From Parcubacteria group bacterium (GTDB taxonomy: Bacteria > Patescibacteriota > Microgenomatia > UBA1400 > PJMF01): a stretch of DNA of 64,000 bases. Within the stretch, counting starts at the first letter, position 1, and every line of letters begins with the position of its first letter. This document shows positions 3,758 to 51,471 of this stretch, piece after piece. The stretch lies in assembly GCA_943350175.1 (NCBI GenBank), contig CALQZX010000005.1, forward strand, positions 150 through 64,149, read 5' to 3'. The translations under genes and the position numbers were made by a program. Under the pieces are notes generated by a model, which worked only from the letters and a program-made list of their open reading frames with translations, had not been told where the DNA came from and searched no databases.

Positions 3758-3795
3758 AAAACCACCTCGGACATGCAATAGGTTTCTCTTGAAGA

Positions 3796-3984
3796 CTATT
3801 TTTGAGCTTTAGTTTTTGGAGTTTTCTCTTTTTTGTTTTCGTTATCGCTAAAGCCTGATCGAATATTCTTGATAGCTTCCCCAATTCCTCTAGATAGCTC
3901 AGGTAGCTTCTTGCCACCAAATAACACAAGGACAATAACCAAAACAACAATAAATTCTTGTACCCCTATTCCAAACATATACAT
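3796..3984 (-). CDS. tatA: TatA/E family twin-arginine translocase subunit (second copy, opposite strand)
   Basis: MYMFGIGVQEFIVVLVIVLVLFGGKKLPELSRGIGEAIKNIRSGFSDNENKKEK... Near-identical at protein level, and ~85% identical at nucleotide level over the TM/hinge region, to the partial tatA at 1-158. The two copies are in inverted orientation. Confidence 0.8.
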   Translation of the reverse strand: MYMFGIGVQEFIVVLVIVLVLFGGKKLPELSRGIGEAIKNIRSGFSDNENKKEKTPKTKAQK

Positions 3985-4194
3985 AGATATTATTCGTAAT
4001 CTACAAGGAATGCAATAGTTTGAATCCCACCAGCCCCACCTGGGCGTGAAATGATCTAGACATCTCGTGATTTATAGCTAACTACCACCACTACTCTTTC
4101 ACACACATCACTGGTGAAGCAAAATTTTTATATTTTATCTGTTAGTTGCTTTTTTCCTCTGGAGCGATATAATTCTCTCAAGTTTACAAGAGCT

Positions 4195-4217
4195 GCCCCT
4201 CCGATAGGGGCTTTTTT
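4195..4217 (+). terminator. rho-independent terminator-like hairpin (gcccct-ccgat-aggggc + T6)
   Basis: A 6-bp GC-rich stem with a 5-nt loop, followed by TTTTTT on the plus strand only. It lies in the 285-nt spacer before the pilin-like gene. Confidence 0.4.
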
Positions 4218-4269
4218 GTAGCTAGACCTGCCTAAAGTTATAAATTATTGATTTATATGGAGGTAGGCT

Positions 4270-4605
4270 ATGAATAAAAAAATAATTGTTACATCTTCTC
4301 TCGCCATCATGGCACTAATCTTTGCGTCACCAGTCTTGGCTGCTTCAGCTGACGTAACCAAGATCGAGACATTCATCAAAAGTATTATCCAAATCTTAGT
4401 GACACTTGCCGGACTCATTTCCGCTGGATTCTTTGTCTGGGGTGGTGTTAGTTATATAACCAGTTCGGGCAACCCAGTTGCGTTGGATCAGGCAAAAAAC
4501 ACGATTAAATATTCAGCCATTGGATTGATCGTTGTCTTGGGAGCATTCATCTTGACTAATATCATCTCTGATTTAGCAACTGGAGCATTTGGAGCTACTC
4601 AATAG
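4270..4605 (+). CDS. VirB2/TrbC-like pilin-type protein (signal peptide + two TM helices)
   Basis: Signal peptide MNKKIIVTSSLAIMALIFASPVLA, then two hydrophobic helices separated by a short loop (…GGVSYITSSGNPVALDQAKNTIKYSAIGLIVVLGAF…). This matches the T4SS pilin architecture. Confidence 0.5.
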   Translation: MNKKIIVTSSLAIMALIFASPVLAASADVTKIETFIKSIIQILVTLAGLISAGFFVWGGVSYITSSGNPVALDQAKNTIKYSAIGLIVVLGAFILTNIISDLATGAFGATQ

Positions 4606-4631
4606 TTCCAATCTTTGGATTATGAACAACT

Positions 4632-5924
4632 ATGAAATTATTGAGTCTGGCACTAATCACCATACTTACGACACTCTTCTTCCCTTCTGTGGCCTATGCA
4701 GCAAGTAGCGCACCATCGGAAGTAACCGCTTTTACGAGTGATGCCCTCACTCTCATTACGATAATATCGGCCGCCTCAGCGGTCTTTTTTTTAATTCGCG
4801 GTGGCTATGTCTACATTACCTCAACTGGCAAGCCAGACGCGCTTGAAGAAGCAAAGAAAACTATTCGCAACTCTATCATTGGTTTAGTACTTGTCCTCGC
4901 CTCCAGTTCAATAGTCTCTGTTTTATCTGGCGCTTTGGTGGGAGGTGGCACTGCCACAAATACAGCCACTCTTCCATTAACTCAAATTGAGAGTGTTGCT
5001 CCAAGTGATGGGTTGACCCAAGTACTAATTGATGCGGTCAACGGATTTATTCAAAATATAGTTGAGAGTTCTACTAAGCCAATAGTCGATGGAATTATGA
5101 CCTTTCTTGGCTCAACTCCATCGCTTCTTGAAAATGCCTCAATCGTCAAATTCTGGCTCATTATGCTCGGTATCACCGATACTCTCTTTGTCCTTGTCGT
5201 CGCACTCCTTGGCCTCCAATTCATGAGTGCCTCCACCTTTGGCTTTGAAGAGATAGAGTTTAAACATTTACTTCCTAGAATTGGCCTGGCGTTCTTAGGG
5301 GCGAATGTCTCACTCTTTTTGGCCGATTATGCAATTAAAGCCAGCAACGCTCTGGTATCTGGGGTAATCTCTGCCACAGGAGGCCTCAATCATGCATGGA
5401 TCACGAACGCTATTACCATATCTAGTCTAACTAATGGCACTGCGCCATTTATTATTCTCATTTTCCTTTTGATATTTCTCATTGTCGCCATCGTACTACT
5501 GCTTATGTACATCAGTCGTTTGATCGTCATAGTACTTGGAGCTGTCCTTTCTCCTTTTATATTCTTACTCTCTGCTATTCCTAAAACTGCTGACTTTGCT
5601 GAGATGGCAGTTAAAGGCTATCTTGTCTCTGTATTTACGATCTTTGTTCATGTCGTAACTATTCAACTGGCTGGAACATTTTTAACCTTGCCAGAGCAAA
5701 CCAATAACTCTCTGATTTCTGTCGCTGTGGCTATCGGGTTATTACTCACTCTCTTGAAAATTCCTAGCTTCATGATGCAACTTATTCTATTTTCCCGAAG
5801 TGTTGGAGCAGTTCGACATATGGGGAGTCAAATCACCAATGTGTTAAGTACTGACTCGAGCTCAAATGTAGCCTACAAGGGCGCGAGAGCAGTCAAGATG
5901 CCCAGAAGGAGTGCAAACCTATGA
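4632..5924 (+). CDS. VirB6/TrbL-like polytopic membrane protein with N-terminal pilin-like domain
   Basis: The N-terminal ~110 aa repeat the architecture and motifs of the preceding pilin-like protein (signal peptide, RGGYVYITSTGKPDALEEAKKTIRNSIIGLVLVL). At least five further TM helices follow, typical of VirB6/TrbL. Confidence 0.5.
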   Translation: MKLLSLALITILTTLFFPSVAYAASSAPSEVTAFTSDALTLITIISAASAVFFLIRGGYVYITSTGKPDALEEAKKTIRNSIIGLVLVLASSSIVSVLSGALVGGGTATNTATLPLTQIESVAPSDGLTQVLIDAVNGFIQNIVESSTKPIVDGIMTFLGSTPSLLENASIVKFWLIMLGITDTLFVLVVALLGLQFMSASTFGFEEIEFKHLLPRIGLAFLGANVSLFLADYAIKASNALVSGVISATGGLNHAWITNAITISSLTNGTAPFIILIFLLIFLIVAIVLLLMYISRLIVIVLGAVLSPFIFLLSAIPKTADFAEMAVKGYLVSVFTIFVHVVTIQLAGTFLTLPEQTNNSLISVAVAIGLLLTLLKIPSFMMQLILFSRSVGAVRHMGSQITNVLSTDSSSNVAYKGARAVKMPRRSANL

Positions 5925-6397
5925 GAACTACCATCATCCCAGCACAAATCACTACAGTTGAGGACAAGATTGCCGGCAGTCTTAACATGACTCAAATCCT
6001 CATTATGATGTTTCCAGTTTTATGGACAGCACTCGTATACATTCTTCTTTTCCCCAGCATGAAACTAACTTCTTTCAAACTGGTATTAATTATTTTTGCC
6101 ACAGCAACCTCGGGTATTTTGGCCCTACGAATCAAAGACAAGATAGTAGCCGAGTGGTTAGGAGTTCTTCTTAAATATCGCCTCAGGCCAAAGTACTACC
6201 TATTTAACAAAAATGATTTAACTAATCGATCACTCGATATACCAGAACTACCAGTTGAGAATGTTGTCGTCAAAAAGAAGGCAAAGAAATCTATCCGAAA
6301 CGAAAACTTTGATCTGGATATCCTTGATCAGGTTAAGCTTGAGCATTTAATAAACTCAGGCAAAGTCGCCCTACACTATCAACTGAGTAAAAAATAA
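5921..6397 (+). CDS. small two-TM protein, VirB3/PrgI/TcpE-like (T4SS)
   Basis: 158 aa with two TM helices, sitting immediately upstream of VirB4. Overlaps the upstream gene by 4 nt. Confidence 0.4.
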   Translation: MRTTIIPAQITTVEDKIAGSLNMTQILIMMFPVLWTALVYILLFPSMKLTSFKLVLIIFATATSGILALRIKDKIVAEWLGVLLKYRLRPKYYLFNKNDLTNRSLDIPELPVENVVVKKKAKKSIRNENFDLDILDQVKLEHLINSGKVALHYQLSKK

Positions 6398-6398
6398 T

Positions 6399-7019
6399 AT
6401 GAAGAACTTACTACATAAATCAGGTAGCACCAGTAGTCGCCAACAAATTCAGATTAAGGAAGTGGTGGATAACATCCTCGTGCTCCCTAATAACGAATAC
6501 CGCCAGATCCTTGAAACTTCCTCGGTCAACTTCGAGCTCAAAAGTGAAGAAGAGCAGGATGTGATCATCGACAGTTTTCAAAACTTCTTAAATGCTCTGC
6601 CCTGTCAGATCCAAATTCTCGTCAGGGTACGCGAAATGGATATTGATAAATATCTCGAAGACATCGCTAAAACAAAAGATAAGGAAAAAGTTCCTGCCTA
6701 CAAAAAACAAATTGAGGGTTACTGTGCTTTTGTGAAGAAGTTGGTCTCGGGAAATAAGATCCTATCAAGACGCTTCTATATTATCGTTCCCTACAAACAT
6801 ACTGAACGTCATCAAGACATGAAGCTCATTAAAGAACATCTAAATCTTGAGAAAGACATCATCGTCAAAGGACTCGAGCGCATGCAGATGAAAGCGAGAT
6901 CGCTCTCAGGCATAGAAATCCTCAATCTCTTTTACGGTTTTTACAACGGTGAGAGCATGAAAACTCAACCCCTTACCAAAGAATCCGTGGAGGCGTTACT
7001 ACGAAATAACTATGTTTAA
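6399..7019 (+). CDS. VirB4/TrbE-type ATPase, N-terminal domain (split gene, part 1)
   Basis: QIKEVVDNILVLPNNEYRQILETSSVNFELKSEEEQDVIIDSFQNFLNALPCQIQILV matches the N-terminal domain of Gram-positive VirB4 homologues. It ends in an ATGTTTAA overlap with the next ORF. Confidence 0.55.
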   Translation: MKNLLHKSGSTSSRQQIQIKEVVDNILVLPNNEYRQILETSSVNFELKSEEEQDVIIDSFQNFLNALPCQIQILVRVREMDIDKYLEDIAKTKDKEKVPAYKKQIEGYCAFVKKLVSGNKILSRRFYIIVPYKHTERHQDMKLIKEHLNLEKDIIVKGLERMQMKARSLSGIEILNLFYGFYNGESMKTQPLTKESVEALLRNNYV

Positions 7020-8811
7020 TCTAACCAAAAAACTATCAAATCTAAAACCAATTAAAAATTGGAAACGCCAACAGCTCAAGAAGAAGTTGACCAACCAGTC
7101 GATTAACATTGCCTACGGGCAGCAAGATCAGCTCGACATGATCTCTTATGCTGGTCTTAAAGAAGAATCCAGCTATTTGCAGATCAACGATCGCTACGTC
7201 AGGACATTGTTTGTTTCAGGCTATCCCTATGTAGCCTCAACTGGCTGGCTCTCTATGCTCATTAATTTCAATCACAATATTGATATCAGCTATCACATTG
7301 AACAAGTTGATCCACTCATTGCTCTGCCCAAACTCAATAGAAAGATCACGGAGCTTGAATCCACCAAACGCACCATGCTTAAAGAAGGTAAGGTCATAGG
7401 GAGCGAAATTACTGATCCCCTCGAATCGGCTATGGAGCTTAAAGACAAAATTCAGCGGGGCATGGAGAAGCTTTTCCAAATCTCTATCTATATGACGATT
7501 AGTGCCGAGAGTTTATCAGAACTCAATAAAGTCACCAAACTCCTCGAAACGGTTATGCAGACAAGACTTTTCTACATCAAGCCCGCTACCTTCCAACAGA
7601 TCGAGGGGTTGCAGTCTATTCTCCCTAGAGCCGAGAATAAACTAGCTCAAAAACGTAATCTTGATAGCTCAAGTGCTGCCCTGACCTTCCCCTTTGTCTC
7701 CTCTGAACTCGTCCAAGAATCAGGTATCTTGTACGGTATCAACAAATCAAATAATTCTCTGGTCATTATTGATCGCTTTAGTTTAAATAATGCCAACTCT
7801 ATTATTTTTGCCCAGTCGGGATCTGGTAAAAGCTATACCGCCAAGGTGGAGATTTTAAGACACCTGATGCAGGGTACAAAGGTCATCATTATTGACCCTG
7901 AGCGCGAGTACAAACAACTGGCTAAGAGTGTGGACGGCACATATATCAAACTCTCTAGCTCATCCAAAGAAAAGATTAATCCTTTTCAGTTCTCAGAGCA
8001 CTCAGTTACCCAAGAAAACAATTTATCCGAACATATTCAGGATTTAACCGAGCTCATCTCCCTGATGGTTGGGTCACTCACCTCAGAAGAGAGGGCATCA
8101 GTTGATCGCGCACTACTTCTCACCTACAAAGAAGCCAAGCTTACTCCGCGTAAAAATGCCAAGAGATCAAAAGCAATAGAGTATCCGCTCCTGAAAGATT
8201 TCTATAAAAATTTAAAATTAATGAAACAGAAAGATTTATGCGACCGACTTGAGAGATTTGTAAAAGGATCGTTATCTACCGTCTTTGATTCCCAAACTAA
8301 TATCAAACTGGATAATCGTCTAATTGTCTTTGATATTAAAGATTTAAACGAATCAATCAGATCAATCATGATGATGGTGGTTGCTAACTTCGTTAATAAC
8401 GAAGTTAAACAAAATCCCCAGAAACGAATGCTCGTGATTGATGAGGGTTGGATGCTCCTGCAAGAACCAGAGAGTGCCAGGTTTATCTCAGGTCTAGTTC
8501 GCCGAGCAAGAAAATATTACTTAGGCGTCACGATCATCACTCAGCAAGCCAATGACTTCCTCAACCAAGACTATGGCAAAGCCATTGCTAGCCAATCATC
8601 CCTGAGAATTCTAATGCGCCAAGATACGACAACTATTAAAAAAGTGGCTGACGAGTTCCATTTATCTGCCTATGAACAACACTATCTGCTAACCTGTGAT
8701 CGAGGTGAGGCTTTAATTATTGCCGATCAAAACCATGTTGCAGTGAAAATTGTGGCCTCAGAGCAAGAACATCCACTTCTGACTACTGATCCCCGGGAAG
8801 TCTATATCTAG
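7012..8811 (+). CDS. VirB4/TrbE-type T4SS ATPase, C-terminal ATPase domain (split gene, part 2)
   Basis: Walker A IIFAQSGSGKSYTAKVEIL, Walker B RMLVIDEGWMLL, and the overall VirB4/CagE/TrbE C-terminal layout. Confidence 0.8.
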   Translation: MFNLTKKLSNLKPIKNWKRQQLKKKLTNQSINIAYGQQDQLDMISYAGLKEESSYLQINDRYVRTLFVSGYPYVASTGWLSMLINFNHNIDISYHIEQVDPLIALPKLNRKITELESTKRTMLKEGKVIGSEITDPLESAMELKDKIQRGMEKLFQISIYMTISAESLSELNKVTKLLETVMQTRLFYIKPATFQQIEGLQSILPRAENKLAQKRNLDSSSAALTFPFVSSELVQESGILYGINKSNNSLVIIDRFSLNNANSIIFAQSGSGKSYTAKVEILRHLMQGTKVIIIDPEREYKQLAKSVDGTYIKLSSSSKEKINPFQFSEHSVTQENNLSEHIQDLTELISLMVGSLTSEERASVDRALLLTYKEAKLTPRKNAKRSKAIEYPLLKDFYKNLKLMKQKDLCDRLERFVKGSLSTVFDSQTNIKLDNRLIVFDIKDLNESIRSIMMMVVANFVNNEVKQNPQKRMLVIDEGWMLLQEPESARFISGLVRRARKYYLGVTIITQQANDFLNQDYGKAIASQSSLRILMRQDTTTIKKVADEFHLSAYEQHYLLTCDRGEALIIADQNHVAVKIVASEQEHPLLTTDPREVYI

Positions 8812-8813
8812 CT

Positions 8814-9416
8814 ATGAATCCAAAGCTAGTACTTACACTCTGGTCGTTTCGCAAAGAACTTAAATTCGTCCTCCTCGCATTCCTCACCATCCTCATGCTT
8901 CCTGTCATTGCGGTCATTCTGCTGACTCAGGTGGGTATAAATATTATCTCCGACAAGTTGGTTGATCAAAATCCGACCAATCAAAGCATCCAGATCAAAG
9001 ACCCAACAACTGGAGAGGTAGTCAAAGAAATTAATCCGACAGTTGTCTGGCCCACCAAAGGGGTAATTACTCTGGAATTTGCACAATCGAGCATGTATCA
9101 GGTCTTCCATACTGGCATAGATATTGCCAGTAAGCTAGATGAACCAGTGAACCCCGCTATGGAAGGCACTGTTATTTATGCGGGAGAGATATTTTGGGGA
9201 TTTGGTAAGCATGTCATTATTGATCACGGAAATAATGTCGTGACTATCTATGCCCACCTAAACAAGATTTACGTCTTTAAAGGCCAAAAGGTGACCACCA
9301 GCGACGTAATTGGTGGCCAAGGTCAAACAGGTTGGGCTACTGGAGTTCACCTTCACTTTCAGGTGAATATATATGGGATACCAGTCAATCCGAGGGTGTT
9401 TTTGGATATTAGATAG
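8814..9416 (+). CDS. M23 family metallopeptidase with N-terminal TM anchor (putative T4SS-associated cell-wall hydrolase)
   Basis: HTGIDIA…GTVIYAG…HVIIDHGNNVVTIYAHL…GWATGVHLHFQV gives the M23 LytM-type HxxxD / HxH motifs. Confidence 0.8.
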   Translation: MNPKLVLTLWSFRKELKFVLLAFLTILMLPVIAVILLTQVGINIISDKLVDQNPTNQSIQIKDPTTGEVVKEINPTVVWPTKGVITLEFAQSSMYQVFHTGIDIASKLDEPVNPAMEGTVIYAGEIFWGFGKHVIIDHGNNVVTIYAHLNKIYVFKGQKVTTSDVIGGQGQTGWATGVHLHFQVNIYGIPVNPRVFLDIR

Positions 9417-9484: not shown

Positions 9485-11860
9485 ATGACCAAAAACAATA
9501 AAGGACTATTTAATAAAAAGGTTGAAAGTCTTTTGCGTAGATTACTTAGAAATGGCAACCGAAAATTTATTTCTATCAATAAGCTCATAGCGTTCAATTA
9601 TTACCTCATTGCGCTGAGAGCAAAAACATTTTTCAGATTTCGAGTTCTCCATTTTCTTAACGCCAAGAAAATGCTTATTGGTTCGTTGATTTATTTTTTG
9701 CTCCTGATAGGCTCTATACTTTTATTAGGGCAGTTTATTGATCCAGCATTTGCTAGGAGTGATGCCATCACCTTTTTTACAGCAGTAGCGGCCATGATCG
9801 GTGGTATCTTAGCAATTATCTTTTCACTTAGTATTCTCCTGATGGGAAATGCAGCAGAGCGTATTCCGGTAGGTTTTTATGAGACTGCTGCAAGAGATTG
9901 GTTGCACGATGTGATATTTTTTCTCATTAGCATTTGTTCTTTAGTGGTCTTCTCTTTTGCACTACTATTTAGCAAACTCAATCTAGGGCTTACGGTACTC
10001 TCTTTTCAGTCAGCTATATTTTTGATTGGCTTTGTTTTCTACCTAACCTTTGTCTTCTATCAAAGAGTTCGAGACAGGCTTGACCCAAATAATGTATTAA
10101 AAATTGCCTCTAAGCAAGCCTTCGCCAAGTTAGACTTCACTCATAAACGAGCTCAAGAAATCGCTGACGTTTTGATTAGACAGCCAAAGTTGGATAAAAA
10201 GGTCACTAAAGAGGAAGCATTGGCAACTTCTTTTCAATATTTGAAACCAGAGTTTGCTTACATCAATAGCAGACTCAACTATCTTTTTGACTATCATGGA
10301 AAATTGGTGGCCTCCAACGAGAGAAGCTCTGCTCTTGGTGTTCTGCAGGTAATAACCAATATTCTTCAAAAGTATTTTCAAACCAGAAAAGATTCCTCGT
10401 TCGTACTACCTGCCGGATTTATTTTAGCCACCACGAGCGATTCTTGTGCTTTCCTAACTCCTCCACTAGAAAGACTAGTGGCTGTTGGTGAAAATTACAT
10501 GAGAGAAAATGACAATGAAGGGATTACCCGAGTAATTTCTATCTTTGTGCAGTTATGTAAGTCAGCCAGTGAGATCAACTATCTGACCAAACATAAGGTA
10601 GAAAGCCCAATAATGGAGCAATGTAGAGGCTACCTAAACCAACTGCTTGAGAGTGCTATTAAATTTAACTATCAGGAGGCTCTATTCCAAGGCATATTAG
10701 CATATGAAGAAATAATTCCAATCGTAATAAAACAGAATCTCCACCATGAGTTTATATCGATTTATGACATGCTCGACAAGATTGCCATGAGTGCCCTAAC
10801 AAACAAATATAACGTAGTTTTAGGTCAGGTAATAAATACTTACACTTCGATTCTGTCTCAACTGATAGCGACAAAATACTTTAACTTGGAAATGGAACTA
10901 GGTTCTTTATGGGAACACTTGAGGAATATTATTTTTTACGCATATGTTTCTATGGTGACTGGCTCTCTTGATAACAGCTTTTCAGTTCAAACAAACTTAG
11001 CAAACCCATTCACAGCAATGTCCTCGATGATTTTCCAAACAGCAAGAGCAGCTACGAACGCTAAAACTGAAGAAGAAATCAACGACTGGAAGGAGGCATT
11101 CTTTACTACTACAGAGGAGTTAAGATCTACTCTCCGCTACCTTTCAGAAAAGATGAAGACAGCCAATCACATTTTGATCAGCACCTTTGGTGAGATTATT
11201 TCCGATGTAGGTTGTTTATTAGTCGACTTGACTAAAAACGGGAAATGGGCAGGTGATAAAGAAGAACTCACAAAACAAATTGGTTGGTATATCTTCCAGA
11301 CAGAATGGTTTACCCATGACCTTAAAAAGATCAAAGATAACAATTCGTTTGACTCTCTAATTGAAGCAGCATCAAAAATAGGTATAAGAGCCATGCAACA
11401 AGAGTTAGATCAAACTGCCAAGGATGCAATTAAAATTCTTTACAACTTTGCCATTAAGATGATGACTTTAGGTGAAGGTGATAGTTATGGTTTTACGGAA
11501 CCAAGAATAATGGAGAGAGCTTGCTACATTGGAGTGCTGGCTCTTAAATTGGGTAAAACAGAGATTATAGACGATTTGAAAGGTTATATAAAAACCTTTG
11601 AAGATGCATATCGAAAAAAATGGTATCCAGAAGGGCCACCAGAAAAAGGAAAGTTAATCTCGCCAAGTTATGATCAACTAATGATGGAAGTGCATGGTCT
11701 TGTAGAAAAGAAAAGAAGTCGTTACGGGCTTTTACCAATTATGGATCGAGCAGATGATGATCTACTACCACTCATCACAGAAGAAGATGTAAACAAATTT
11801 ATTATGGAAGTCTGGGGTGTAACGATTGAAACTAAGACTAGTAGCAGTATGTTTTTTTAA
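9485..11860 (+). CDS. large membrane-anchored protein of unknown function (5-6 N-terminal TM helices + ~600-aa helical domain)
   Basis: Hydrophobic N-terminal third, long soluble C-terminal part, no recognisable catalytic motif. Confidence 0.4.
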   Translation: MTKNNKGLFNKKVESLLRRLLRNGNRKFISINKLIAFNYYLIALRAKTFFRFRVLHFLNAKKMLIGSLIYFLLLIGSILLLGQFIDPAFARSDAITFFTAVAAMIGGILAIIFSLSILLMGNAAERIPVGFYETAARDWLHDVIFFLISICSLVVFSFALLFSKLNLGLTVLSFQSAIFLIGFVFYLTFVFYQRVRDRLDPNNVLKIASKQAFAKLDFTHKRAQEIADVLIRQPKLDKKVTKEEALATSFQYLKPEFAYINSRLNYLFDYHGKLVASNERSSALGVLQVITNILQKYFQTRKDSSFVLPAGFILATTSDSCAFLTPPLERLVAVGENYMRENDNEGITRVISIFVQLCKSASEINYLTKHKVESPIMEQCRGYLNQLLESAIKFNYQEALFQGILAYEEIIPIVIKQNLHHEFISIYDMLDKIAMSALTNKYNVVLGQVINTYTSILSQLIATKYFNLEMELGSLWEHLRNIIFYAYVSMVTGSLDNSFSVQTNLANPFTAMSSMIFQTARAATNAKTEEEINDWKEAFFTTTEELRSTLRYLSEKMKTANHILISTFGEIISDVGCLLVDLTKNGKWAGDKEELTKQIGWYIFQTEWFTHDLKKIKDNNSFDSLIEAASKIGIRAMQQELDQTAKDAIKILYNFAIKMMTLGEGDSYGFTEPRIMERACYIGVLALKLGKTEIIDDLKGYIKTFEDAYRKKWYPEGPPEKGKLISPSYDQLMMEVHGLVEKKRSRYGLLPIMDRADDDLLPLITEEDVNKFIMEVWGVTIETKTSSSMFF

Positions 11861-11868
11861 CATGCATA

Positions 11869-12090
11869 ATGAACTATAATAACTTTATGTCGCCAGAAAA
11901 GATTGGTAAAAAACTAAAAGAAGCACGTATAAGGCTTGGACTTACGCAATCTGATGTGGCTGAAAAAGCTGGCATTAGCGCGAATTATTACGCCAGAGTT
12001 GAACGAGACGAGGAAAACACTACGGTTGAAACCTTGAAAGGAATCTGTAAGGTTCTGAAGATCAAATCCTCGAAAGTACTTTCTTTTTAA
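11869..12090 (+). CDS. XRE-family (Cro/C1) HTH transcriptional regulator
   Basis: IGKKLKEARIRLGLTQSDVAEKAGISANYYARVERDEE is a canonical HTH_3 motif. Confidence 0.7.
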   Translation: MNYNNFMSPEKIGKKLKEARIRLGLTQSDVAEKAGISANYYARVERDEENTTVETLKGICKVLKIKSSKVLSF

Positions 12091-12320
12091 TCTTTCTTGA
12101 GCTTGATTGGATCAATTTTTCCGGACTGTTCGTCTTCTACAAGTTTGTGTGCTAGTTCATGAGCCATATCTGCATTTTCCTCTAGAAACTTGATTGCATC
12201 CTCCCGAGTAGCGTTCTTATCTTTGTTCGTGCGAAGATATCCGAGAATCCCGTCAATATCTTTCTCGGTAATTTGGTAGCCTGAGTTTTGCGTCATATGG
12301 TCGAAGTATAACACTTTCAT
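12087..12320 (-). CDS. small hypothetical protein (last gene of PLD-nuclease operon)
   Basis: 77-aa ORF overlapping the stop of the nuclease gene by 4 nt. Its own 3' end overlaps the convergent XRE gene by 4 nt. Confidence 0.4.
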   Translation of the reverse strand: MKVLYFDHMTQNSGYQITEKDIDGILGYLRTNKDKNATREDAIKFLEENADMAHELAHKLVEDEQSGKIDPIKLKKD

Positions 12321-12763
12321 ATGTATCTCCCAAAATTCAAATAATTAAACATATCTACGGCGAAGCCGCCGCCCTCCATGCGGCGCATGATTTCTCTACT
12401 ATGAATCTGCGATAAAATGTTCAAACTGCCTTCCCAAAGAATGCTTCTATCAATAATTGCTAGTTTCCGGTGATGATTGCCTGTGCAGAGCAAAACCTGT
12501 ATTCCTAAGGCTTCACAAGCCTCGATTTCACTCTCCGACTGGACTTCGTAGCCATCACTGTGGTCTTGGGGATCACGGGTGATAATATAGATTTTAACTC
12601 CCTTGGAGTAGGCATGCTTTAAGCTCGGCCAGAGCATTTTCATTCGACTGGAGGTGATAAACGGACTTTCGATGATTATTTCCTCGGCAGCTTGGTCAAG
12701 ATCCCTCAAGAAGGCTTTGTAGAACGTCTTTTCATCATAGAGAGTGGAGTTGTAGTTATTCAT
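12317..12763 (-). CDS. phospholipase-D-family (HKD) nuclease, Nuc-like
   Basis: A single HKD motif, HHRKLAIIDRSILWEGSLNI (HxKx4D…GSxN). At 148 aa it is the size of the Nuc/BfiI-type minimal PLD nuclease domain. No signal peptide. Confidence 0.65.
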   Translation of the reverse strand: MNNYNSTLYDEKTFYKAFLRDLDQAAEEIIIESPFITSSRMKMLWPSLKHAYSKGVKIYIITRDPQDHSDGYEVQSESEIEACEALGIQVLLCTGNHHRKLAIIDRSILWEGSLNILSQIHSREIMRRMEGGGFAVDMFNYLNFGRYI

Positions 12764-12956
12764 GGCTCACCTCCATGTTATCAATATAGACAATTTTCCC
12801 GTTTACCTCTTGGATACCAAGTTCTTGAAGTTTATAATACGTCTTGATCACACTGTCAAAAAGCAGTTCCACCTGTAAGACAGTGGGCTCACATATAAAA
12901 ACAGACGCATTTATGCGTCTTTTTTTATATGTGAGAGCCGGTATTGATGAGAGCAC
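12756..12956 (-). CDS. doubtful small ORF overlapping hairpin repeat
   Basis: 66-aa ORF whose 5' part is embedded in the terminator-like palindrome at 12886-12950. It may be spurious. Confidence 0.2.
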   Translation of the reverse strand: MLSSIPALTYKKRRINASVFICEPTVLQVELLFDSVIKTYYKLQELGIQEVNGKIVYIDNMEVSHE

Positions 12957-23793: not shown

Positions 23794-24654
23794 TTGGCGA
23801 GGTATACTTGGATTATGCTAGAAAAAGCCAGTCAACCAATTCATAAGGTTGCAATTTTTCAGGGAATAAAGGTACGTAGAATTATCCACGATGGGGAGTG
23901 GTGGTTTTCGGTGGTGGATGTGATTAGAGTGTTGACGAATAGCAATAAACCAGCAGTTTATTGGAGCGTCATGAAGACTAGAGTTGAATCTAACGATGGT
24001 TTCCAGTTGTTTACAATTTGTAAACAACTGAAAATGAAATCAAATGATGGCAAAAGTTATGCTACCGATTGTGCTAATACCGAAGGTCTTTTTCGCATTA
24101 TTCAATCCATCCCCTCTCCCAAAGCCGAACCTTTTAAACGTTGGTTAGCCAAAGTTGGCTTTGAGCGTATTCAAGAGATTGAAAATCCAGAGTTAGCCAG
24201 CAAACGAACAAGACTACTTTACAAGTTGAAAGGCTATTCGGATGCCTGGATTGAAAAAAGGATGCGTGGCATTACCATTAGAGAAGAATTAACTGATGAA
24301 TGGAAAAAAAGAGGTGCAGAGCAACAAAAAGATTTTGAAATTTTAACAGCCGAAATATCCAAGGCAACATTCGGTCTCACACCGAGTGAATACAAAGAAC
24401 TAAAAGGTCTCAAGCGAGAAAACTTGCGTGATCACATGGATGATTTCGAGCTAATCTTCACCATGCTTGGCGAACGTTCTACCACAGAAATTCACAGAAT
24501 TGAAGATTCCAGTGGCGTGCCAAAATTGCAGTCTGATGCCAAGCGAGGTGGTGGGATTGCTGGTGTAGCCAGAACAGAGTTGGAAAAAGAAATTGGGAAA
24601 AAGGTGATGAGGGAAGAAAATTTTTTGCCAAAAGATGTGGAAAAATTAAAGTAA
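23794..24654 (+). CDS. Bro-N domain protein (phage antirepressor / DinD-like)
   Basis: KVRRIIHDGEWWFSVVDVIRVLTNSNKPAVYW is a typical Bro-N core. The C-terminal part is KilA/ANT-like. Confidence 0.6.
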   Translation: MARYTWIMLEKASQPIHKVAIFQGIKVRRIIHDGEWWFSVVDVIRVLTNSNKPAVYWSVMKTRVESNDGFQLFTICKQLKMKSNDGKSYATDCANTEGLFRIIQSIPSPKAEPFKRWLAKVGFERIQEIENPELASKRTRLLYKLKGYSDAWIEKRMRGITIREELTDEWKKRGAEQQKDFEILTAEISKATFGLTPSEYKELKGLKRENLRDHMDDFELIFTMLGERSTTEIHRIEDSSGVPKLQSDAKRGGGIAGVARTELEKEIGKKVMREENFLPKDVEKLK

Positions 24655-42761: not shown

Positions 42762-42837
42762 TGGCCTCGTGGTGTAGCGGTTAACATGTCTCCCTGTCAC
42801 GGAGAAGACCGTCGGTTCGAATCCGATCGAGGTCGCC
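42762..42837 (+). tRNA. tRNA-Asp (anticodon GTC), CCA encoded
   Basis: Cloverleaf folded by hand. Acceptor GGCCTCG/CGAGGTC, D-stem GTGT/ACAT, anticodon arm TCTCC-cTGTCac-GGAGA, T-arm GTCGG-TTCGAAT-CCGAT, discriminator G + CCA. Confidence 0.85.
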
Positions 42838-44472
42838 ATTTCGGATTTCTTGCTTACTTAGTTTGAAATACTCGGCTAAGTAAGCGGTTCCATCTACAAT
42901 TTGATTGTAAGTTGGCAATTCATTAAACATCATTCCAAAAAGTTGCTCTTGTCTACGCACATTCTCGGTGTCTATTAGCAGTTCTTCCAAGTGTTCCATG
43001 AAATAGCGAGCATATTGGAAACCAAGCTTAGCATTGAGTTCTTTTTTAACTTGTTGGTCTCTCATTTCTCTTGCTGATTTTAGCTTTTTTTCTACTCCCT
43101 CATAGTCCTCTTCTAAGGCCTTTCTGACTAATTCGCTATCTACTTGTTTGATGCGTTGAAAAATGGCGTTTTGCTCGGCTAGGAGGTCTGAGACGTACTT
43201 CTCTTTGTTCTGGCTTTCTTCAATTACATCAGATCTTTTTTTATCCCATTCTTCATAGAACAAAGCCTCCAGCAGCTTATGAAAATTTTCATCAAATTTT
43301 ATTTGTTTGATAAATTCATAAACATTCTTATTAAATTCGCTGGCTCCTTCAGACCACTGCTTATGACCTTGGTGGCAATGATAATATTTATACTTTTTTC
43401 CACCCCTACCTTTTGAAGCACTCCCTCTCAATTCGTGATTACAGATTGGACAAAGAACGACTCTTTTAAATGGGAATTCAGGATTGTGCTTCATGATGCG
43501 CTTTTTGGTTCTCTCTGTTTGCGCCTCATTCCCGTAAAAGATTTTGACCTCATCACCTGAAATTTCCAGTAAGATCTTATCTTTATTAGCTTGATTAAAT
43601 AACTCTGCATCAATAAAACCCGGAAATTTGGCTTTAACAGGCTGGTAATTTGTCCATTTTTCACAAAAGACTCCTGTGTAAATAGTTCTAGTCAAGAACT
43701 CAGCTATTCTGCTGGCACTTGCTTGATTTCCGCCGATCTTGCCAATTGGTTTTTTAGTTCTTCTATCACGCTTATTTTTAATTCTAGACCTATATCCAAG
43801 TCTATTTATTTCATTTGCTATTTCTGGTAAATTAAAGCCCTTAGCTTTCATTTGAAAAATCTTCTTTATAAAAAAAGACTCTTTTGGGTTTTCTATTAGA
43901 ATAAATCGTTTACCACTATCAGTTTCTATCCTCTTAGATTCAAATCCAAATGCCGAGCCATGTATACGATAACCTTGGCGAGTGTAAGTAACTTCAGCTC
44001 CTATTGTTTGAGTTAAGATGTTTCTTCTATCAGCTTTGGCTTGTTCTGCTGCCTCTATTTCAGCTGGTTCTGATGGTGAATATTTACTCCAATCATACTC
44101 AATTCCTAAATGATCCAGAGTGTTTATTTTTTCTCCGATAGTGTTGTAAACATCTGTTATTCTTACGCCATTTTGCTCAAGTTTTGTTTTCCATTTTAAG
44201 TAATCTACTCCACCACCTCTAGTGAATCTACTAATATTTTTAAATAACAATATATCGATTTTGTTCTCTTTATTGATGACATGGTCTAAAACTTCTTGGA
44301 AGAACTCTCTTTCTTTTAAAGCTCCACTTTCGATCAAAGAGAAAACTTTCTTTTCCTCTAAATTTTCTTTTTTTATATAGTGGCGGCACTGTTCTAACTG
44401 ATGCTCTAGACCGTCTCCTTCGGAAGCTTGTTTTGGTGATGATGCTCTAACGAGGATTACTGTGTTTTTCAT
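42781..44472 (-). mobile_element. large serine recombinase (resolvase catalytic domain + recombinase domain + zinc ribbon); 3' end reads antisense through tRNA-Asp 3' half
   Basis: Catalytic VILVRASSPKQ (Ser nucleophile) and ISRFTRG, recombinase domain, zinc ribbon CPICNHELRGSASKG…YKYYHCHQG, and a C-terminal coiled-coil. The last 19 codons are the reverse complement of tRNA-Asp positions 20-76. Confidence 0.8.
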
Positions 44473-45269
44473 TAGCAGTTCTCCTTATAGCTAACTTCTA
44501 AAACTTTGTCCACCATACAGGCGGCCAATTGTCGAAGTTTGGAAATTATTTTTTCAATTTCATTGTTGGACAAATTATTGAATTTGTTCCCCAACAATTT
44601 ACGTGCTAATTCTATCGTCATCTGGGACCTTTCCCAGTTAACGAAGAGATGAACTGCAAAAAAACCTGATCAATCAACAATCGATTTGTCTACAAAAACT
44701 AATAACCCATAACGAGCAATAAATAGTTTGATTATGTTTGTTATTAATTAATGAGAGAACAGAATTGTGTGATTGACCCAATTATTAATTGATCTAAAAA
44801 TACTTTTATAAATATTCTTAGATCAATTCTTCTGTTAACTATATTGTCTGGTTTTGAGCAGTAATTTGATGCCATCTAAATAGTATCAAATGGTCGCCCA
44901 AAACCTTTCAATTATTAATTATTACTAATTTGGTTTATATCACCCCTAATTTTTTTTGCAAGCTATTAAAAAATAATTAAATTTGTTTTAAAAACCCCAA
45001 CCCACAACAAGCTATTGGCTAAGGTTTTTACTGCTCTCTATAAACCTGCCTTGGTACGCGATATTTTTCAGTGTAGAAACTATCCTATAATTTATAAAAT
45101 AATTTACCTTATTTATGTAAAGGAATGTCCATAGATAGAGGACGTCCTTTAGGCCTCTTTAGGTGTAGGAGGGGTGTAATCTTTGTCAGACGATTGATGA
45201 TTTGTTATCTAGATAAGGAGCTAAGCAAGCCGGCCGGCAGGTGGCTACACTCATGTTTTAAATAAGCGC

Positions 45270-45641
45270 TTATTTTAGTATCTGTTGTTTTAACAGAACC
45301 AGCTTTGTTCGTTTAACAAATAGCCTTTTAAGAAATTCATAATAATCTAGATCTACTTTTTCAACTGCTTTTTCTAAGGCTTCATTAATTCTCTTAATAT
45401 CCAAAGATGGCAAAGTATTAATCTTTAAATTCAATTGGCGTAATGCATATTTATTCTCAACTCTCATAGCGTATTGTTCTGTTGTTTCTAACTCATCAAG
45501 AAATGGAGGGGCTGGATCAAAGAAACAAAGTATTTTAAAGATGAGAGTATGAATGAAAACCTTATTTACCATGCCGGGGATAACGTATTCGGCAATAATA
45601 AAACTCGAATTGCCATCGTGTTTAATCCTTTTTATTTTCAT
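45270..45641 (-). CDS. hypothetical protein (island)
   Basis: 123-aa ORF. AT-rich codon usage, distinct from the core genes. Confidence 0.3.
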   Translation of the reverse strand: MKIKRIKHDGNSSFIIAEYVIPGMVNKVFIHTLIFKILCFFDPAPPFLDELETTEQYAMRVENKYALRQLNLKINTLPSLDIKRINEALEKAVEKVDLDYYEFLKRLFVKRTKLVLLKQQILK

Positions 45642-45918
45642 GGTTTTTCATTTTGAACAAAATATTATCAATTCTTTCTTTCTTTTCTTGTTCATTTTTT
45701 GCATATGTTCTATAAAAAAAAAGTCCAGACAGCCACATAAAAATTGTTCCTCCATCATAAATACCGTGGCTCATGGCATAAAGTCCAATAAGAAATGAAA
45801 TTGAACAAAAAACACCAGACGTTTCAGATTTCGGTATTTTATCTTTGTGCAATTTGCTTATGACTAATGGTCCAACGCAGATAAGTATAATTATTATTAA
45901 TAAAGTTTCTTCTGTCAT
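45622..45918 (-). CDS. small hypothetical membrane protein (island)
   Basis: 98 aa with two TM helices. Overlaps the downstream ORF by 20 nt. Confidence 0.3.
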   Translation of the reverse strand: MTEETLLIIIILICVGPLVISKLHKDKIPKSETSGVFCSISFLIGLYAMSHGIYDGGTIFMWLSGLFFYRTYAKNEQEKKERIDNILFKMKNHENKKD

Positions 45919-45964
45919 AATGATGTTTATTATATACCACCAGTAAGTCGACCACAGGTAAAGA

Positions 45965-46201
45965 TTGCATCAAAATTTACCCATGGTCGACAAGCAAGAA
46001 TTATCAGCAAGGTTGGGTCAAAGATTGGCGGAACTGAGATCTCTTAAGGGATTTACTCAGGAGAGGTTGGCTTATGATGCTGAACTTAATAGGGCTTATG
46101 TTGGCTATATTGAGCGCGGAGAAAGAAATCCATCTGTTGTGACGATGGCAAAGATAGCGCTTGCCTTAAAAGTTGAGTTGCATGAGCTTTTTAGGTTATA
46201 A
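45965..46201 (+). CDS. XRE-family HTH regulator (island)
   Basis: LGQRLAELRSLKGFTQERLAYDAELNRAYVGYIERGERNPSVVTMAKIALAL is an HTH_3 motif. Confidence 0.65.
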   Translation: MHQNLPMVDKQELSARLGQRLAELRSLKGFTQERLAYDAELNRAYVGYIERGERNPSVVTMAKIALALKVELHELFRL

Positions 46202-46267
46202 ATAATTGTTTATTTAAGATTAATATCCACAATTCAAGTACGACCCAATTTTTGAAAATTTATCCAA

Positions 46268-47920
46268 TTAGGAGTACATTTCAGCTGACTTCAAAGCTAT
46301 TCTATTTATTGATTGACGTATATCGAATATTGGATCTGAAACATCTACATACGGATCATATTTATTCAATTCAAATGCTAGAGCGATAGCATACTCAGTG
46401 AAGGCAACTTCATATGCCAGGCGCCTAAATACAGGATCTTCAGGAGAACGATCTTTTTTAGCTGCAATAATTTGAGGATGGTCGAGATTGATGTAAATAG
46501 TTCTAAATTCTGATTTATATTCTGCTCTATCTGGCATATTTGATCCTAAATGGGAAAATTCAATGCTAAATCCGCCTCCACTTCTCTTTTTTTTGCCATC
46601 ATCGCCAACATAATGTCCTTTTGAATCTCCCATCACTTTAGGCTTTACTATTGGGTTTAATTCCGGTGGCTCCTCGTCTTTATTCATGGAGTTTTGTACC
46701 TCTTTTAGGTTTAAAAAACCAACTTCTCCAATGTCATTTTCTATAGTTGCTGGATTGTTTCCTCCAAATAGAAAATCATTGGTTCCTTTAGTTTTTTCTC
46801 CAAATTCTATATTTCCTGTGTCAGGACCGTGTTTTAGCTCAGTTGTTTGTATTTTTTTTAGTTTCATCCTAAATGAATCAAAATCTGAATTTATAATATT
46901 TTCAATCTTTGATGCTTCATCTCGTAGTCTGTTAGCTTCTTCTGAAGCTTTTTCATTTTTATATTCTTCAACAAGTTCTTTTCTAACTTTTTCAAACAAC
47001 GGTCCAATAAATTGATACACTTCATTTACAATTTCGTTTTGTGGATTCAACTTCATTGATCTAGAAGCATCAAATGCTGAGGGTACTGAGTTGTCATCTG
47101 CGAGAGTCTCGACATCAATTTCTCCAAAAATAAAATTTGCCATTTCTTTACCTTCAAATCCGAGCATTGATGTTTCAAGCCATACTCCATTGGAAAAAAT
47201 TGAAATTCCACGAAAATCTTTCTCTAATGGTGACCTTGAAACCCTGATAATTAGTTTTGTTTTTCCAACGCGAGACATTTTTTTATTAAACGTTTCAAAA
47301 ACTTCTTCTCTTTCAATAGATGGTTCTATGAATTCACATAGGTGATTGTTAACTATCACAGAGACATCTTTTGGCCATTTTACAAGGTGCCTCTCTATAT
47401 ATTCAATTACACTTGATTGATCAATTAATTTTAGGTGAATTTTCTCAATCTCGACAAGTGTTCCATCATTTAAATCAGTTGGCTTTTCTTTGTAGATAGT
47501 TGTAACAGGCACAGGACTTCCAGATGAGCAATTTTCTAAATCTTTTCTTAGTAACTGAACGGCAGATGTTTTGCCATTTTTTGTTGTAGTAATTTTTAAA
47601 GAGTCGGCAATTCCAAAAGCCGCTGATTTTCCAGTTCCAAAATAACCTCTTCCAGGTTGTCCTGTTTTTCGATCTTGATTCTCTCCATGCATAATGAAAT
47701 AGTTTTCTAAGTCAGCCCAATTCATTCCTCTTCCATTATCTAGAATACTAATGCTTTTGTTTTTACTATTTAGGGATACTCTGATTTTTGGACTTACACC
47801 CTTATTAACATATTGAAGGCTATTCGAAACATACTCCCAAACGACCAGGCGTTCATTTTTAAACATTCCTGCTGATTGAAGCAAGTCTCTGGATATGTGA
47901 GATTTAACTAATATTGGCAT
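46268..47920 (-). CDS. GHKL-superfamily (HATPase_c_3 / MORC-like) ATPase with ~350-aa C-terminal extension
   Basis: Bergerat-fold motifs: N box EYVSNSLQY, G1 box ILDNGRGM, G2 box GQPGRGYFGTGKSAAFG. No histidine-kinase HisKA, gyrase or MutL C-terminal domains. Confidence 0.65.
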   Translation of the reverse strand: MPILVKSHISRDLLQSAGMFKNERLVVWEYVSNSLQYVNKGVSPKIRVSLNSKNKSISILDNGRGMNWADLENYFIMHGENQDRKTGQPGRGYFGTGKSAAFGIADSLKITTTKNGKTSAVQLLRKDLENCSSGSPVPVTTIYKEKPTDLNDGTLVEIEKIHLKLIDQSSVIEYIERHLVKWPKDVSVIVNNHLCEFIEPSIEREEVFETFNKKMSRVGKTKLIIRVSRSPLEKDFRGISIFSNGVWLETSMLGFEGKEMANFIFGEIDVETLADDNSVPSAFDASRSMKLNPQNEIVNEVYQFIGPLFEKVRKELVEEYKNEKASEEANRLRDEASKIENIINSDFDSFRMKLKKIQTTELKHGPDTGNIEFGEKTKGTNDFLFGGNNPATIENDIGEVGFLNLKEVQNSMNKDEEPPELNPIVKPKVMGDSKGHYVGDDGKKKRSGGGFSIEFSHLGSNMPDRAEYKSEFRTIYINLDHPQIIAAKKDRSPEDPVFRRLAYEVAFTEYAIALAFELNKYDPYVDVSDPIFDIRQSINRIALKSAEMYS

Positions 47921-47922
47921 AT

Positions 47923-48495: not shown

Positions 48496-48523
48496 AATTA
48501 ATATTAATAGTTGTATTTATACG

Positions 48524-51397: not shown

Positions 51398-51471
51398 GCG
51401 ACCGTAGTTCAGCGGTAGAATGCAAGCTTCCCAAGCTTGAGGTGAGGGTTCGACTCCCTTCGGTCGCTCCA
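51398..51471 (+). tRNA. tRNA-Gly (anticodon CCC), CCA encoded
   Basis: Acceptor GCGACCG/CGGTCGC, anticodon arm CAAGC-ttCCCaa-GCTTG, T-arm GAGGG-TTCGACT-CCCTT, 3' TCCA. Confidence 0.85.

Follow-up and report, generated by a model that had tools for sequence, protein, structure and literature searches.

A six-gene type IV secretion operon with a predicted VirB2–VirB6 fusion protein in a Patescibacteria chromosome, and the ICE-like backbone around its relatives

Type IV secretion systems (T4SSs) were reported in Saccharibacteria several years ago (McLean et al., 2020; PMC7427843), were later found to be essential for epibiotic growth (Wang et al., 2023; PMC10633639), and were detected in 2,417 genomes in a survey of 3,035 Patescibacteria genomes (Quinonero-Coronel et al., 2025; PMC12102498). 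The features described in that survey that match the locus analysed here are the pairing of TrsD with VirB4, PrgI/VirB3 homologues, arrays of VirB2-like pilins, peptidases as VirB1 substitutes and the rarity of relaxases; VirB6 was found to be scarce in Microgenomatia, ‘suggesting extreme sequence divergence’, and only 22.6% of the Microgenomatia VirB3 homologues lie near virB4 (PMC12102498). At present the T4SSs of Patescibacteria are seen as essential, mechanistically opaque and probably repurposed away from conjugation. Here we analyse a 64-kb stretch of contig CALQZX010000005.1, called the window throughout, in which positions 4146–9416 are best read as a single operon for the envelope-spanning module of a Patescibacteria-type T4SS. 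This kind of system is already known from papers of 2020–2025 and the window adds nothing categorically new to it; what goes beyond those papers is a widespread fusion of a pilin domain to VirB6, a context resembling an integrative and conjugative element (ICE), and a leader that combines a promoter with a terminator-like hairpin. A VirB2–VirB6 fusion is not described in any of the three papers (PMC12102498, PMC10633639, PMC7427843).

The operon contains six open reading frames (ORFs) on the same strand:

4270–4605, plus strand: VirB2-like T4SS pilin, 111 residues, with a Sec-type signal peptide (..PVLA/AS) and two hydrophobic helices in the hydropathy profile
4632–5924, plus strand: predicted VirB2–VirB6 fusion protein, 430 residues, with signal peptide (1–23), pilin hairpin (about 24–106), Gly/Thr-rich linker (about 101–120) and TrbL/VirB6-type polytopic domain (about 115–395)
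5921–6397, plus strand: PrgI/VirB3-like protein, 158 residues, with two hydrophobic segments in the hydropathy profile
6399–7019, plus strand: TrsD, 206 residues, a stand-alone homologue of the VirB4 N-terminal region
7012–8811, plus strand: VirB4 ATPase, 599 residues, with Walker A (GSGKS) at residue 270 and Walker B (IDEGW) at residue 476
8814–9416, plus strand: membrane-anchored M23 metallopeptidase, 200 residues, with an N-terminal hydrophobic anchor and the motifs HTGID and HLH

Save for a gap of 26 nt after the pilin gene, neighbouring genes overlap or lie 1–2 nt apart, a layout that fits one operon. The initial annotation, made from the sequence before any database search, had described a compact Gram-positive-style T4SS of the type found in small-genome epibionts, and tests with hidden Markov models upheld each of its component assignments. 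More precisely, the protein called pilin-like reaches 43.8 bits against Pfam T4SS_pilin (cut-off 26.6) and 29.0 bits against Pfam TrbC/VirB2 (cut-off 27.9), the small protein with two membrane segments 29.5 bits against Pfam PrgI (cut-off 27), and the peptidase 97.4 bits against Pfam Peptidase_M23; the latter is a probable cell-wall hydrolase in the VirB1 role. The signal peptides of both pilin modules, the free and the fused one, are of Sec type with an A-x-A motif at the end. For comparison, a scan with one genome per GTDB species gave 80 related loci, whose VirB4 proteins are 71–96% identical to that of the window and which derive from metagenome-assembled genomes (MAGs) of Collier-, Gottesman-, Shapiro-, Roizman-, Davies-, Levy- and Woykebacteria, WWE3 and Pacebacteria. 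The order of the six genes is invariant in all 80; a PrgI-like gene was found at the equivalent position in 69 of them, and in each relative that has coverage the PrgI-like and fusion genes immediately precede trsD-virB4.

The 599-residue VirB4 scores 365.3 bits against the NCBIfam family conju_CD1110 (cut-off 325) and covers positions 179–733 of this 752-position CD1110-type model, while TrsD corresponds to positions 3–171 (E 5e-12, below the full-length cut-off), the two proteins jointly tiling a full-length VirB4. TrsD also matches the NCBIfam TrsD/TraD family (E 1.7e-6, again below the full-length cut-off), and in relatives its precomputed Pfam annotation is TraC-like. The locus had at first been read as containing a split VirB4: the ATPase, its Walker motifs and the tiling of the VirB4 model by the two parts are borne out, whereas the split itself is best described, as judged from the sequences, as a conserved and already known pair of TrsD and VirB4. 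A frameshift or pseudogene as the cause was rejected, since the 8-nt overlap of trsD and virB4 (kept in 56 of 71 loci) and the lengths of both ORFs are conserved across loci. Additional matches of VirB4 are to Pfam P-loop_TraG and AAA_10 and to the TraC and VirB4_CagE families. An FtsK/HerA-type or type IV pilus ATPase, which would have pointed away from a T4SS, does not fit: the VirB4/TraC assignment lies above the curated cut-off, four other T4SS components are adjacent, DUF87/HerA appears as a weaker, overlapping secondary P-loop match in Pfam, and the Pfam and NCBIfam scans gave no T2SSE match. Taken together, the window holds a VirB4-family ATPase, a PrgI/VirB3-like neighbour and a polytopic protein of the VirB6/TrbL family, as in other VirB4-based T4SSs, and in addition a TrsD homologue beside virB4 and two T4SS_pilin domains 1.8–2.7 kb upstream of it, as in the Patescibacteria clade. 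All close homologues of this VirB4 (71–96% identical) come from Patescibacteria MAGs or from obviously mislabelled ones, and the curated model that fits it best is of MPF_FATA type, which would agree with a place in the monophyletic Patescibacteria clade nested in MPF_FATA (PMC12102498). The identity of the membrane module as a Patescibacteria-type T4SS is secure.

What is the 430-residue protein encoded between the pilin and the PrgI-like genes? It had been noticed as a VirB6-like protein that repeats the architecture of the pilin, and both parts of this statement hold. Residues 30–98 match Pfam T4SS_pilin with 44.6 bits (E 1.5e-11), and the N-terminus is 33% identical to the 111-residue pilin over 96 residues (E 1e-13). 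The C-terminal region of the window’s own protein falls below the Pfam TrbL filters; homologues 75–86% identical to it pass TrbL_4 (PF19597) over nearly the whole model (residues about 128–405), and a 136-member profile of the fusion family aligned by hhalign to a mostly pilin-less TrbL_4-type set, which includes a Spirillospora ‘conjugal transfer protein TrbL family protein’, gives a probability of 100% and E 8e-46 over residues about 115–392. An exhaustive search of 1.84 billion representatives yielded about 50 full-length relatives of 380–500 residues and 22–61% identity, which align across both halves in one stretch; among 38 diverse relatives T4SS_pilin was found in 36, TrbL (PF04610) in eight and TrbL_4 in three. 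More than 1,100 homologues were found, with over 1,000 in Microgenomatia and Saccharimonadia, among them Saccharimonadia/Saccharibacteria proteins of 480–500 residues with T4SS_pilin plus TrbL_3 and/or TrbL, and one Saccharimonadia locus has the identical order of pilin, fusion, PrgI, TrsD, VirB4 and hydrolase. A gene-calling artefact was rejected as explanation, as more than 1,000 homologues of similar size align in one stretch across both domains. By these profile comparisons, the protein, annotated as ‘pilin’ at NCBI, is a genuine VirB2–VirB6 fusion, and the fusion is old and widespread, neither recent nor local. The impression that a pilin fused to VirB6 is unusual is therefore correct for classical T4SSs but not for Patescibacteria, where the fusion is the rule. 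The scarcity of VirB6 that has been reported for Microgenomatia is probably explained by this protein.

Structure prediction reproduces the domain layout of the fusion protein in part. The AlphaFold2 model built from the 136-sequence alignment shows a helix hairpin (29–63 and 68–102), a low-confidence linker (102–125) and then long membrane helices, with a predicted local distance difference test score (pLDDT) of 69 and a predicted template modelling score of 0.61; a shallow alignment of 30 sequences at ≥75% identity resulted in an unusable model (pLDDT 46). A Foldseek search of the better model against the PDB returned no match at E ≤0.001 and no significant solved VirB6, and a profile search of PDB sequences with the family alignment returned nothing relevant, so that VirB6 is here an assignment by profile and not by fold. 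The Foldseek match to R388 TrwI/VirB6 (E 6.5–7.9, TM 0.13–0.19) was not counted as evidence. Within the fused pilin domain the conservation profile shows a conserved hairpin-loop region and variable ends. As a separate observation, five proteins of 546–820 residues (P0192, P0203, P0213, P0226 and P0232) contain 6–8 separate stretches matching the pilin region (fusion residues about 25–102) and look like tandem pilin-domain ‘polyproteins’ and not like arrays of separate pilin genes.

The conserved DNA extends beyond the six genes. Homology of the relatives to the window starts sharply at 4145–4169, ends at 9403–9416 and resumes at 11871–12897, and this part of the window contains the following features:

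9485–11860, plus strand: gene in a variable slot for a 791-residue protein with about five N-terminal hydrophobic segments
11869–12090, plus strand: XRE-type helix-turn-helix (HTH) regulator, 73 residues, with NCBIfam and PADLOC HTH matches; conserved backbone
12087–12320, minus strand: conserved 77-residue protein between the HTH and PLD genes, with tblastn/blastp homologues in loci L003, L016, L017, L032 and others
12317–12763, minus strand: phospholipase D (PLD)-family nuclease-like protein, 148 residues (NucT/DrmC-like); conserved backbone, found in 49 related loci
12903–12920: bidirectional terminator-like hairpin, just past the right end of the homology to relatives (about 12897)

The second block of homology thus consists of the HTH gene, a small ORF and the PLD nuclease gene, a trio present in 49 loci. 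The HTH homologues are 46–73% identical and stand at the equivalent relative position; the PLD protein is classified by PLDc_2 in relatives, by a weak NucT match and by PADLOC domain matches to MkoC and DrmC; the 77-residue protein has no family match in NCBIfam or PADLOC. The 791-residue protein in the slot between the M23 and HTH genes has no Pfam, NCBIfam or PADLOC match and no similarity in about 130 related loci. In relatives the same slot is occupied by Qat, PHP-ATPase, type I restriction-modification, DISARM-like PLD-SNF2 or Dsb/heavy-metal genes. Overall the cargo slots carry Qat, type I restriction-modification, methylase, PLD-SNF2, efflux and metal-resistance genes, and their content differs between otherwise near-identical modules.

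Moreover, the relatives carry a set of genes upstream of the module. Their full backbone order is serine recombinase, small ORF, VirD4-like type IV coupling protein (T4CP), Replic_Relax, DUF2958, cargo slot, six-gene module, cargo slot, HTH, small ORF and PLD, with a variable slot of 0.3–7.6 kb separating the upstream genes from the module. The T4CP of about 870 residues has TrwB_AAD_bind, T4SS-DNA_transf and TraG-D_C domains and is adjoined by the Replic_Relax and DUF2958 proteins. Replic_Relax is a family of PD-(D/E)XK fold, and the Pfam family has been equated with the MobC relaxase superfamily (Coluzzi et al., 2017; PMC5357655), which makes the protein of the relatives a candidate MOBC-type relaxase. 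The triad of T4CP, Replic_Relax and DUF2958 lies upstream of the module in L003, L008, L014, L022, L031, L034, L036, L053 and L057, the upstream set is partly visible in L001, L020, L024 and L025, and in L027 and L058 the triad is found after the PLD gene, a circular permutation of the backbone order. The large serine recombinase adjoins the T4CP, and in L034 its 3' end overlaps a tRNA-Gly gene. A second set was obtained by searching metagenomes with the coupling protein of the relatives: in the 51 resulting T4CP-centred loci the triad and the upstream recombinase recur, and the module lies within 1–6 kb downstream of the last detected triad gene in four independent cases (L088/L091/L097, L108, L118 and L121). 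Linkage of the module, in a fixed backbone order, to serine recombinase, T4CP and MOBC-type candidate was seen in 16 relatives or more. Given that relatives carry these genes and that the window is cut by the contig end, the apparatus is of the epibiont T4SS type, as first proposed, but not obviously minimal.

Two further loci show other arrangements. In L098 (1–4541) the coupling protein gene is followed directly by HTH and PLD genes. Neither the module nor a Replic_Relax gene was detected there, and the locus may be a reduced, mobilisable derivative of the backbone. In L137, a locus of Saccharimonadia type (Logan SRR8639428), a CHAP hydrolase replaces the M23 peptidase and a VirD4-like coupling protein lies immediately downstream of the module. 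The flanks of L137 contain a SMODS gene resembling those of cyclic-oligonucleotide-based anti-phage signalling systems (CBASS), Mrr and TIR genes and a complete cytochrome oxidase cluster (COX1-4), the latter being unexpected as Patescibacteria are reported to be without a respiratory chain.

On balance we lean, with a chance slightly better than even, towards reading the module as being, or recently having been, the transfer apparatus of an ICE-like element, and favour a conjugation-type function. Several observations favour horizontal spread, although they fall short of a phylogenetic proof: 1) For the fusion protein, 18 database clusters reach ≥90% identity and the match at rank 120 still shows 77%, whereas the seryl-tRNA synthetase (SerRS) of the window has two clusters at ≥90% and about 70% identity by rank 40, its named Microgenomatia matches being at most 71% identical. 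2) MAGs of Collierbacteria and Gottesmanbacteria contain VirB4 copies that share 93% identity with that of the window. 3) Two genomes have two complete, divergent module copies on one contig (L052/L054 on CAJQIG010000001.1 and L042/L049 on JBBDPM010000004.1) with VirB4 90–92%, PrgI 67–74% and PLD 55–57% identical between copies, which suggests coexisting related elements and mosaic evolution. 4) The GC content of the module is 0.41–0.45 (mostly 0.41–0.43) within flanks of 0.36–0.47 in the close subgroup. 5) The cargo slots vary in content. Identity also varies along single modules (L006 with pilin 77% but VirB4 96%; L008 with pilin 96% but PrgI 69%), and conservation ranks VirB4 > TrsD and M23 > fusion > pilin > PrgI.

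Other observations weigh against such a reading. The 64-kb window contains no VirD4-type coupling protein and no relaxase in Pfam scans of the larger ORFs or in tblastn searches with the T4CP and Replic_Relax proteins of the relatives, as had been noted at the outset, nor does the cluster have an adjoining integrase or recombinase there. Neither att sites nor an excised circular form were identified, nor was an oriT, for which no dedicated search was made. Only the module, one cargo gene and the HTH–small ORF–PLD trio are visible of the element, and to the right of the PLD gene ordinary chromosome follows (lysS, serS, secA, dnaE). In most of the related loci the 7 kb of available upstream flank contain no T4CP, the high conservation of the module could be due to strong purifying selection instead of transfer, and the structural model of the fusion is of moderate confidence and has no significant match among solved VirB6 structures. 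Relaxases were found in only 103 of the 3,035 Patescibacteria genomes (PMC12102498), and in Southlakia epibionticum the homologous system is essential for epibiotic growth while the T4CP is not, which points to a host-directed role (PMC10633639; PMC12102498). As to the genes missing upstream, only about 149 nt of the source contig (ENA ERZ27280308 k141_2037864, 94,847 bp) precede the window, the contig end lies 4.4 kb upstream of the pilin gene, and the side on which relatives carry recombinase, T4CP and relaxase is unassembled. Since the contig breaks off there, an absence of coupling protein and relaxase cannot be concluded. On the other side, no coupling protein was found in the roughly 9 kb beyond the right end of the window, which is dcw/ftsZ/ileS DNA. 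A serine recombinase gene of the window at 42781–44472 was rejected as integrase of the element, as its product is 22% identical to the element recombinase and it lies 30 kb away with housekeeping genes between.

It could be imagined instead that the operon encodes a core T4SS of the chromosome that is passed on vertically and is no conjugation machine. It would support epibiotic life by delivering effectors to the host bacterium or extracting material from it, and the T4CP and relaxase genes found nearby in some relatives would be those of unrelated or parasitic elements sharing its channel. The homologous Saccharibacteria cluster is needed for growth on the host, whereas its T4CP is dispensable, and the authors of that work proposed that it exports proteins or has some other role; 2,417 of 3,035 Patescibacteria genomes have the system while relaxases are rare; and in the window it stands among housekeeping genes with no integrase beside it. 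Such a core system does not, however, lead one to expect a fixed backbone linkage to serine recombinase, T4CP and MOBC-type candidate in at least 16 relatives, variable cargo in the slots, two divergent copies on one contig, or module proteins conserved more widely than SerRS, and conjugation and host-directed roles are not mutually exclusive. We therefore consider this explanation possible though rather unlikely.

DNA-import machines can be built from related parts, the archaeal Ced system around a VirB4-like ATPase and the Helicobacter pylori ComB system as a T4SS-derived uptake apparatus. A machine of this sort, taking up host DNA as a source of nucleotides, would work with the gene set of the window (pilin, VirB6-like protein, small transmembrane protein, VirB4 and hydrolase) and need neither T4CP nor relaxase, and there is a weak NCBIfam match of the VirB4 to CedD (E 9e-10, far below the cut-off). 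Patescibacteria are moreover without de novo nucleotide synthesis (PMC10633639). Nevertheless, VirB4 fits the conjugative CD1110, Mycoplasma ICE and TraC families best and not Ced, and T4CP and MOBC-type candidate are adjacent in relatives. In Southlakia the loss of comEC abolishes competence and leaves viability unaffected, although a separate import route may exist. Import as the function of the module is in our view improbable.

How might expression of the operon be controlled? The DNA homology to relatives begins at a leader with three features:

4146–4173, plus strand: sigma-70-like promoter, with a -35-like hexamer TTGCTT (4146–4151) and the -10 hexamer TATAAT (4168–4173)
4195–4217, plus strand: terminator-like hairpin GCCCCTCCGATAGGGGC followed by T6, detected by a terminator scan; it stands in the 5' leader, after the promoter and before the start codon of the pilin gene
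4227–4232 and 4259–4267, plus strand: invariant CCTGCC, predicted in the minimum-free-energy fold to pair with the Shine-Dalgarno region GGAGGTAGG

In an upstream alignment of 14 loci the relatives have a promoter TTGACT-N17-(T/G)AT(A/C)AT at the equivalent site; the -35 element of the window is weaker than theirs and too weak for a consensus scan. The hairpin lies about 20 nt downstream of the -10 hexamer and is followed by the Shine-Dalgarno sequence and the ATG of the pilin gene. Of 62 loci, 51 have a hairpin with U-run at 40–80 nt before the ATG of the pilin gene, in 40 distinct sequences whose stems differ and yet still pair (GCCCC/GGGGC, TGCCACC/GGTGGCA, CTGCC/GGCAG, TACTGTC/GACAGTA). 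CCTGCC and GGAGG are both invariant in the alignment of 14 loci, the pairing of CCTGCC being confined to the closer subgroup, and the minimum-free-energy fold of 4180–4290 has z = -3.6. The leader matches no Rfam family. A conserved promoter that is followed by a terminator before the first gene suggests that expression of the operon is controlled by regulated read-through, and the leader offers a handle on the regulation of the operon. The leader also bears on the idea that the cluster is the remnant of a decayed mobile element and is no longer expressed or assembled. The weaker -35 element and the lack of a visible T4CP, relaxase or integrase in the window would agree with decay. Against it stand six full-length ORFs with intact catalytic motifs, identities of 71–96% to many relatives without frameshifts, and the conservation of the leader and the Shine-Dalgarno sequence, and we regard decay as very improbable.

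By analogy with established T4SS biology, the parts of the module would act as follows. The M23 peptidase would open the peptidoglycan locally, PrgI/VirB3, TrsD and VirB4 would form a membrane-bound ATPase platform, and the TrbL/VirB6-type domain of the 430-residue protein would provide the membrane channel and the platform for pilus assembly, on which the Sec-exported 111-residue pilin would polymerise. The pilin hairpin tethered to VirB6 could, speculatively, constitute a fixed first layer or a docking site for the free pilin; as the C-terminus of a pilin and the N-terminus of VirB6 are both outside the membrane, such a tethered hairpin is topologically compatible with VirB6. In an element of ICE type, DNA would enter the channel by way of coupling protein and relaxase, and the recombinase/coupling-protein side of the window’s element would lie beyond the contig end. 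A more far-reaching proposal, which we put forward tentatively and think doubtful as a whole, is that the module serves a large, unrecognised family of ICEs that spreads islands of defence and resistance genes through Microgenomatia and related Patescibacteria by means of a MOBC-type relaxase and a divergent VirD4. The fusion would then be a new way of building a monoderm conjugative pilus, in which a pilin layer permanently tethered to the platform, and not VirB5 with the outer-membrane core, would nucleate or anchor the filament, and a conserved leader attenuator would gate expression. As the fusion is common to Saccharimonadia, the essential VirB6 of cultivated Saccharibacteria is likely to have the fusion architecture as well and would be open to genetic probing. 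Furthermore, a widespread subfamily within an ICE-like backbone with T4CP and a MOBC-type candidate reopens the question of conjugation by ultra-small bacteria.

The remainder of the window is chromosomal DNA of a Microgenomatia-like member of the Patescibacteria, with class I LysRS, split transketolase, secA, dnaE, gatAB and division and cell wall (dcw) genes; the named homologues of its proteins come from Collier-, Shapiro-, Gottesman- and Pacebacteria, lineages of Microgenomatia type. An Rfam scan at gathering thresholds found tRNAs only, and cumulative GC skew was rejected as a marker of an origin near the cluster, as it tracks the coding strand here. Upstream of the operon, positions 6–170 and 3784–3948 form a 165-nt inverted repeat (78% complementary) made up of two tatA copies in opposite orientation, the contig end lying 149 nt to the left of the first copy. 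The copies bracket tatC and four genes, for proteins of 69 and 146 residues, a 337-residue CarboxypepD_reg-like protein and a 398-residue beta-helix protein, and the bracketed segment could be invertible or could be cargo in the upstream slot of the element. A 286-residue Bro-N domain protein, a domain typical of genes of phages and mobile elements, is encoded at 23794–24654 between serS and secA. Finally, a separate island of low GC content (0.31–0.35) occupies 42763–50704, with the next tRNA-Gly at 51398. It includes the serine recombinase gene at 42781–44472 (minus strand), which overlaps the 3' part of the tRNA-Asp gene at 42763–42838 and is followed by genes for a 550-residue HATPase_c_3 protein, a 190-residue protein and a 726-residue Sigma70_r4-containing protein with a weak PADLOC match to MzaA.

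How does the locus compare with known systems? The closest are the T4SSs of the Patescibacteria clade itself, which like the window have TrsD and a PrgI/VirB3-like protein before VirB4, VirB2-like pilins near virB4 in a monoderm and a downstream peptidase as VirB1 substitute, and which are chromosomal and without relaxase or T4CP in the immediate cluster. The window differs from the published accounts in that its ‘second pilin’ is the predicted VirB6. For Microgenomatia a proximity to dnaA/dnaN has been described, whereas neither gene is present in the window, and neither DnaA nor DnaN was identified among the families common to at least four of the 80 related loci, several of these families being unannotated. 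In addition, the published systems are regarded as largely non-conjugative, in contrast to the repeated linkage of the subfamily described here to serine recombinase, T4CP and MOBC-type candidate.

This type of Patescibacteria T4SS derives from the MPF_FATA conjugation machinery of monoderm bacteria, represented in Firmicutes by the Trs proteins of pGO1/pSK41 (TrsC/TrsD/TrsE), the Prg proteins of pCF10 (PrgH/PrgI/PrgJ/PrgK) and the CD1110-type VirB4 of a conjugative transposon of Clostridioides difficile. Shared with these are a VirB4 passing the CD1110 equivalog cut-off, the TrsD-like split, a PrgI protein, and an operon that combines a polytopic VirB6-like protein with a cell-wall hydrolase. 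Unlike in MPF_FATA systems, no PrgL/VirB8-like protein or adhesin was found and the hydrolase is M23, not SLT or CHAP; and while Gram-positive systems are generally described without VirB2 pilins, the window has a free pilin and a pilin domain on VirB6. Actinobacterial TrbL_4 proteins (e.g., Spirillospora MFC9973893.1) are homologous to the C-terminal 280 or so residues of the fusion (phmmer E 3e-16 to P0244; hhalign probability 100%) but have a non-pilin, Cys/Pro-rich N-terminus and longer C-terminal tails, T4SS_pilin being found in two of the 15 proteins of the set.

In the 2022 cryo-EM model of the R388 system VirB6 reportedly is the platform on which VirB2 pilins assemble, and the N-out topology of VirB6 in R388 Trw is compatible with the C-out pilin hairpin of the window’s fusion. 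The Trw system differs in that VirB2 (TrwL) and VirB6 (TrwI) are separate proteins and in that VirB5, VirB7-10 and VirB11 are present. Similarity also extends to the ICEs of Mycoplasma: the free pilin (E 3e-9) and the pilin region of the fusion (E 1e-5) match the NCBIfam pilin-like model Mbov_0395 and VirB4 matches Mbov_0397 with 314 bits, all of them below the equivalog cut-offs (40 bits for the pilin model and 590 bits for the VirB4 model). Mycoplasma ICEs use a DDE transposase, whereas the relatives of the window’s element carry a serine recombinase. The two kinds of host nevertheless resemble each other, the Mycoplasma ICE hosts and the Patescibacteria both being wall-less or monoderm, small-genome bacteria, with an ICE-borne system in the former and, on the reading favoured here, an ICE-like one in the latter.

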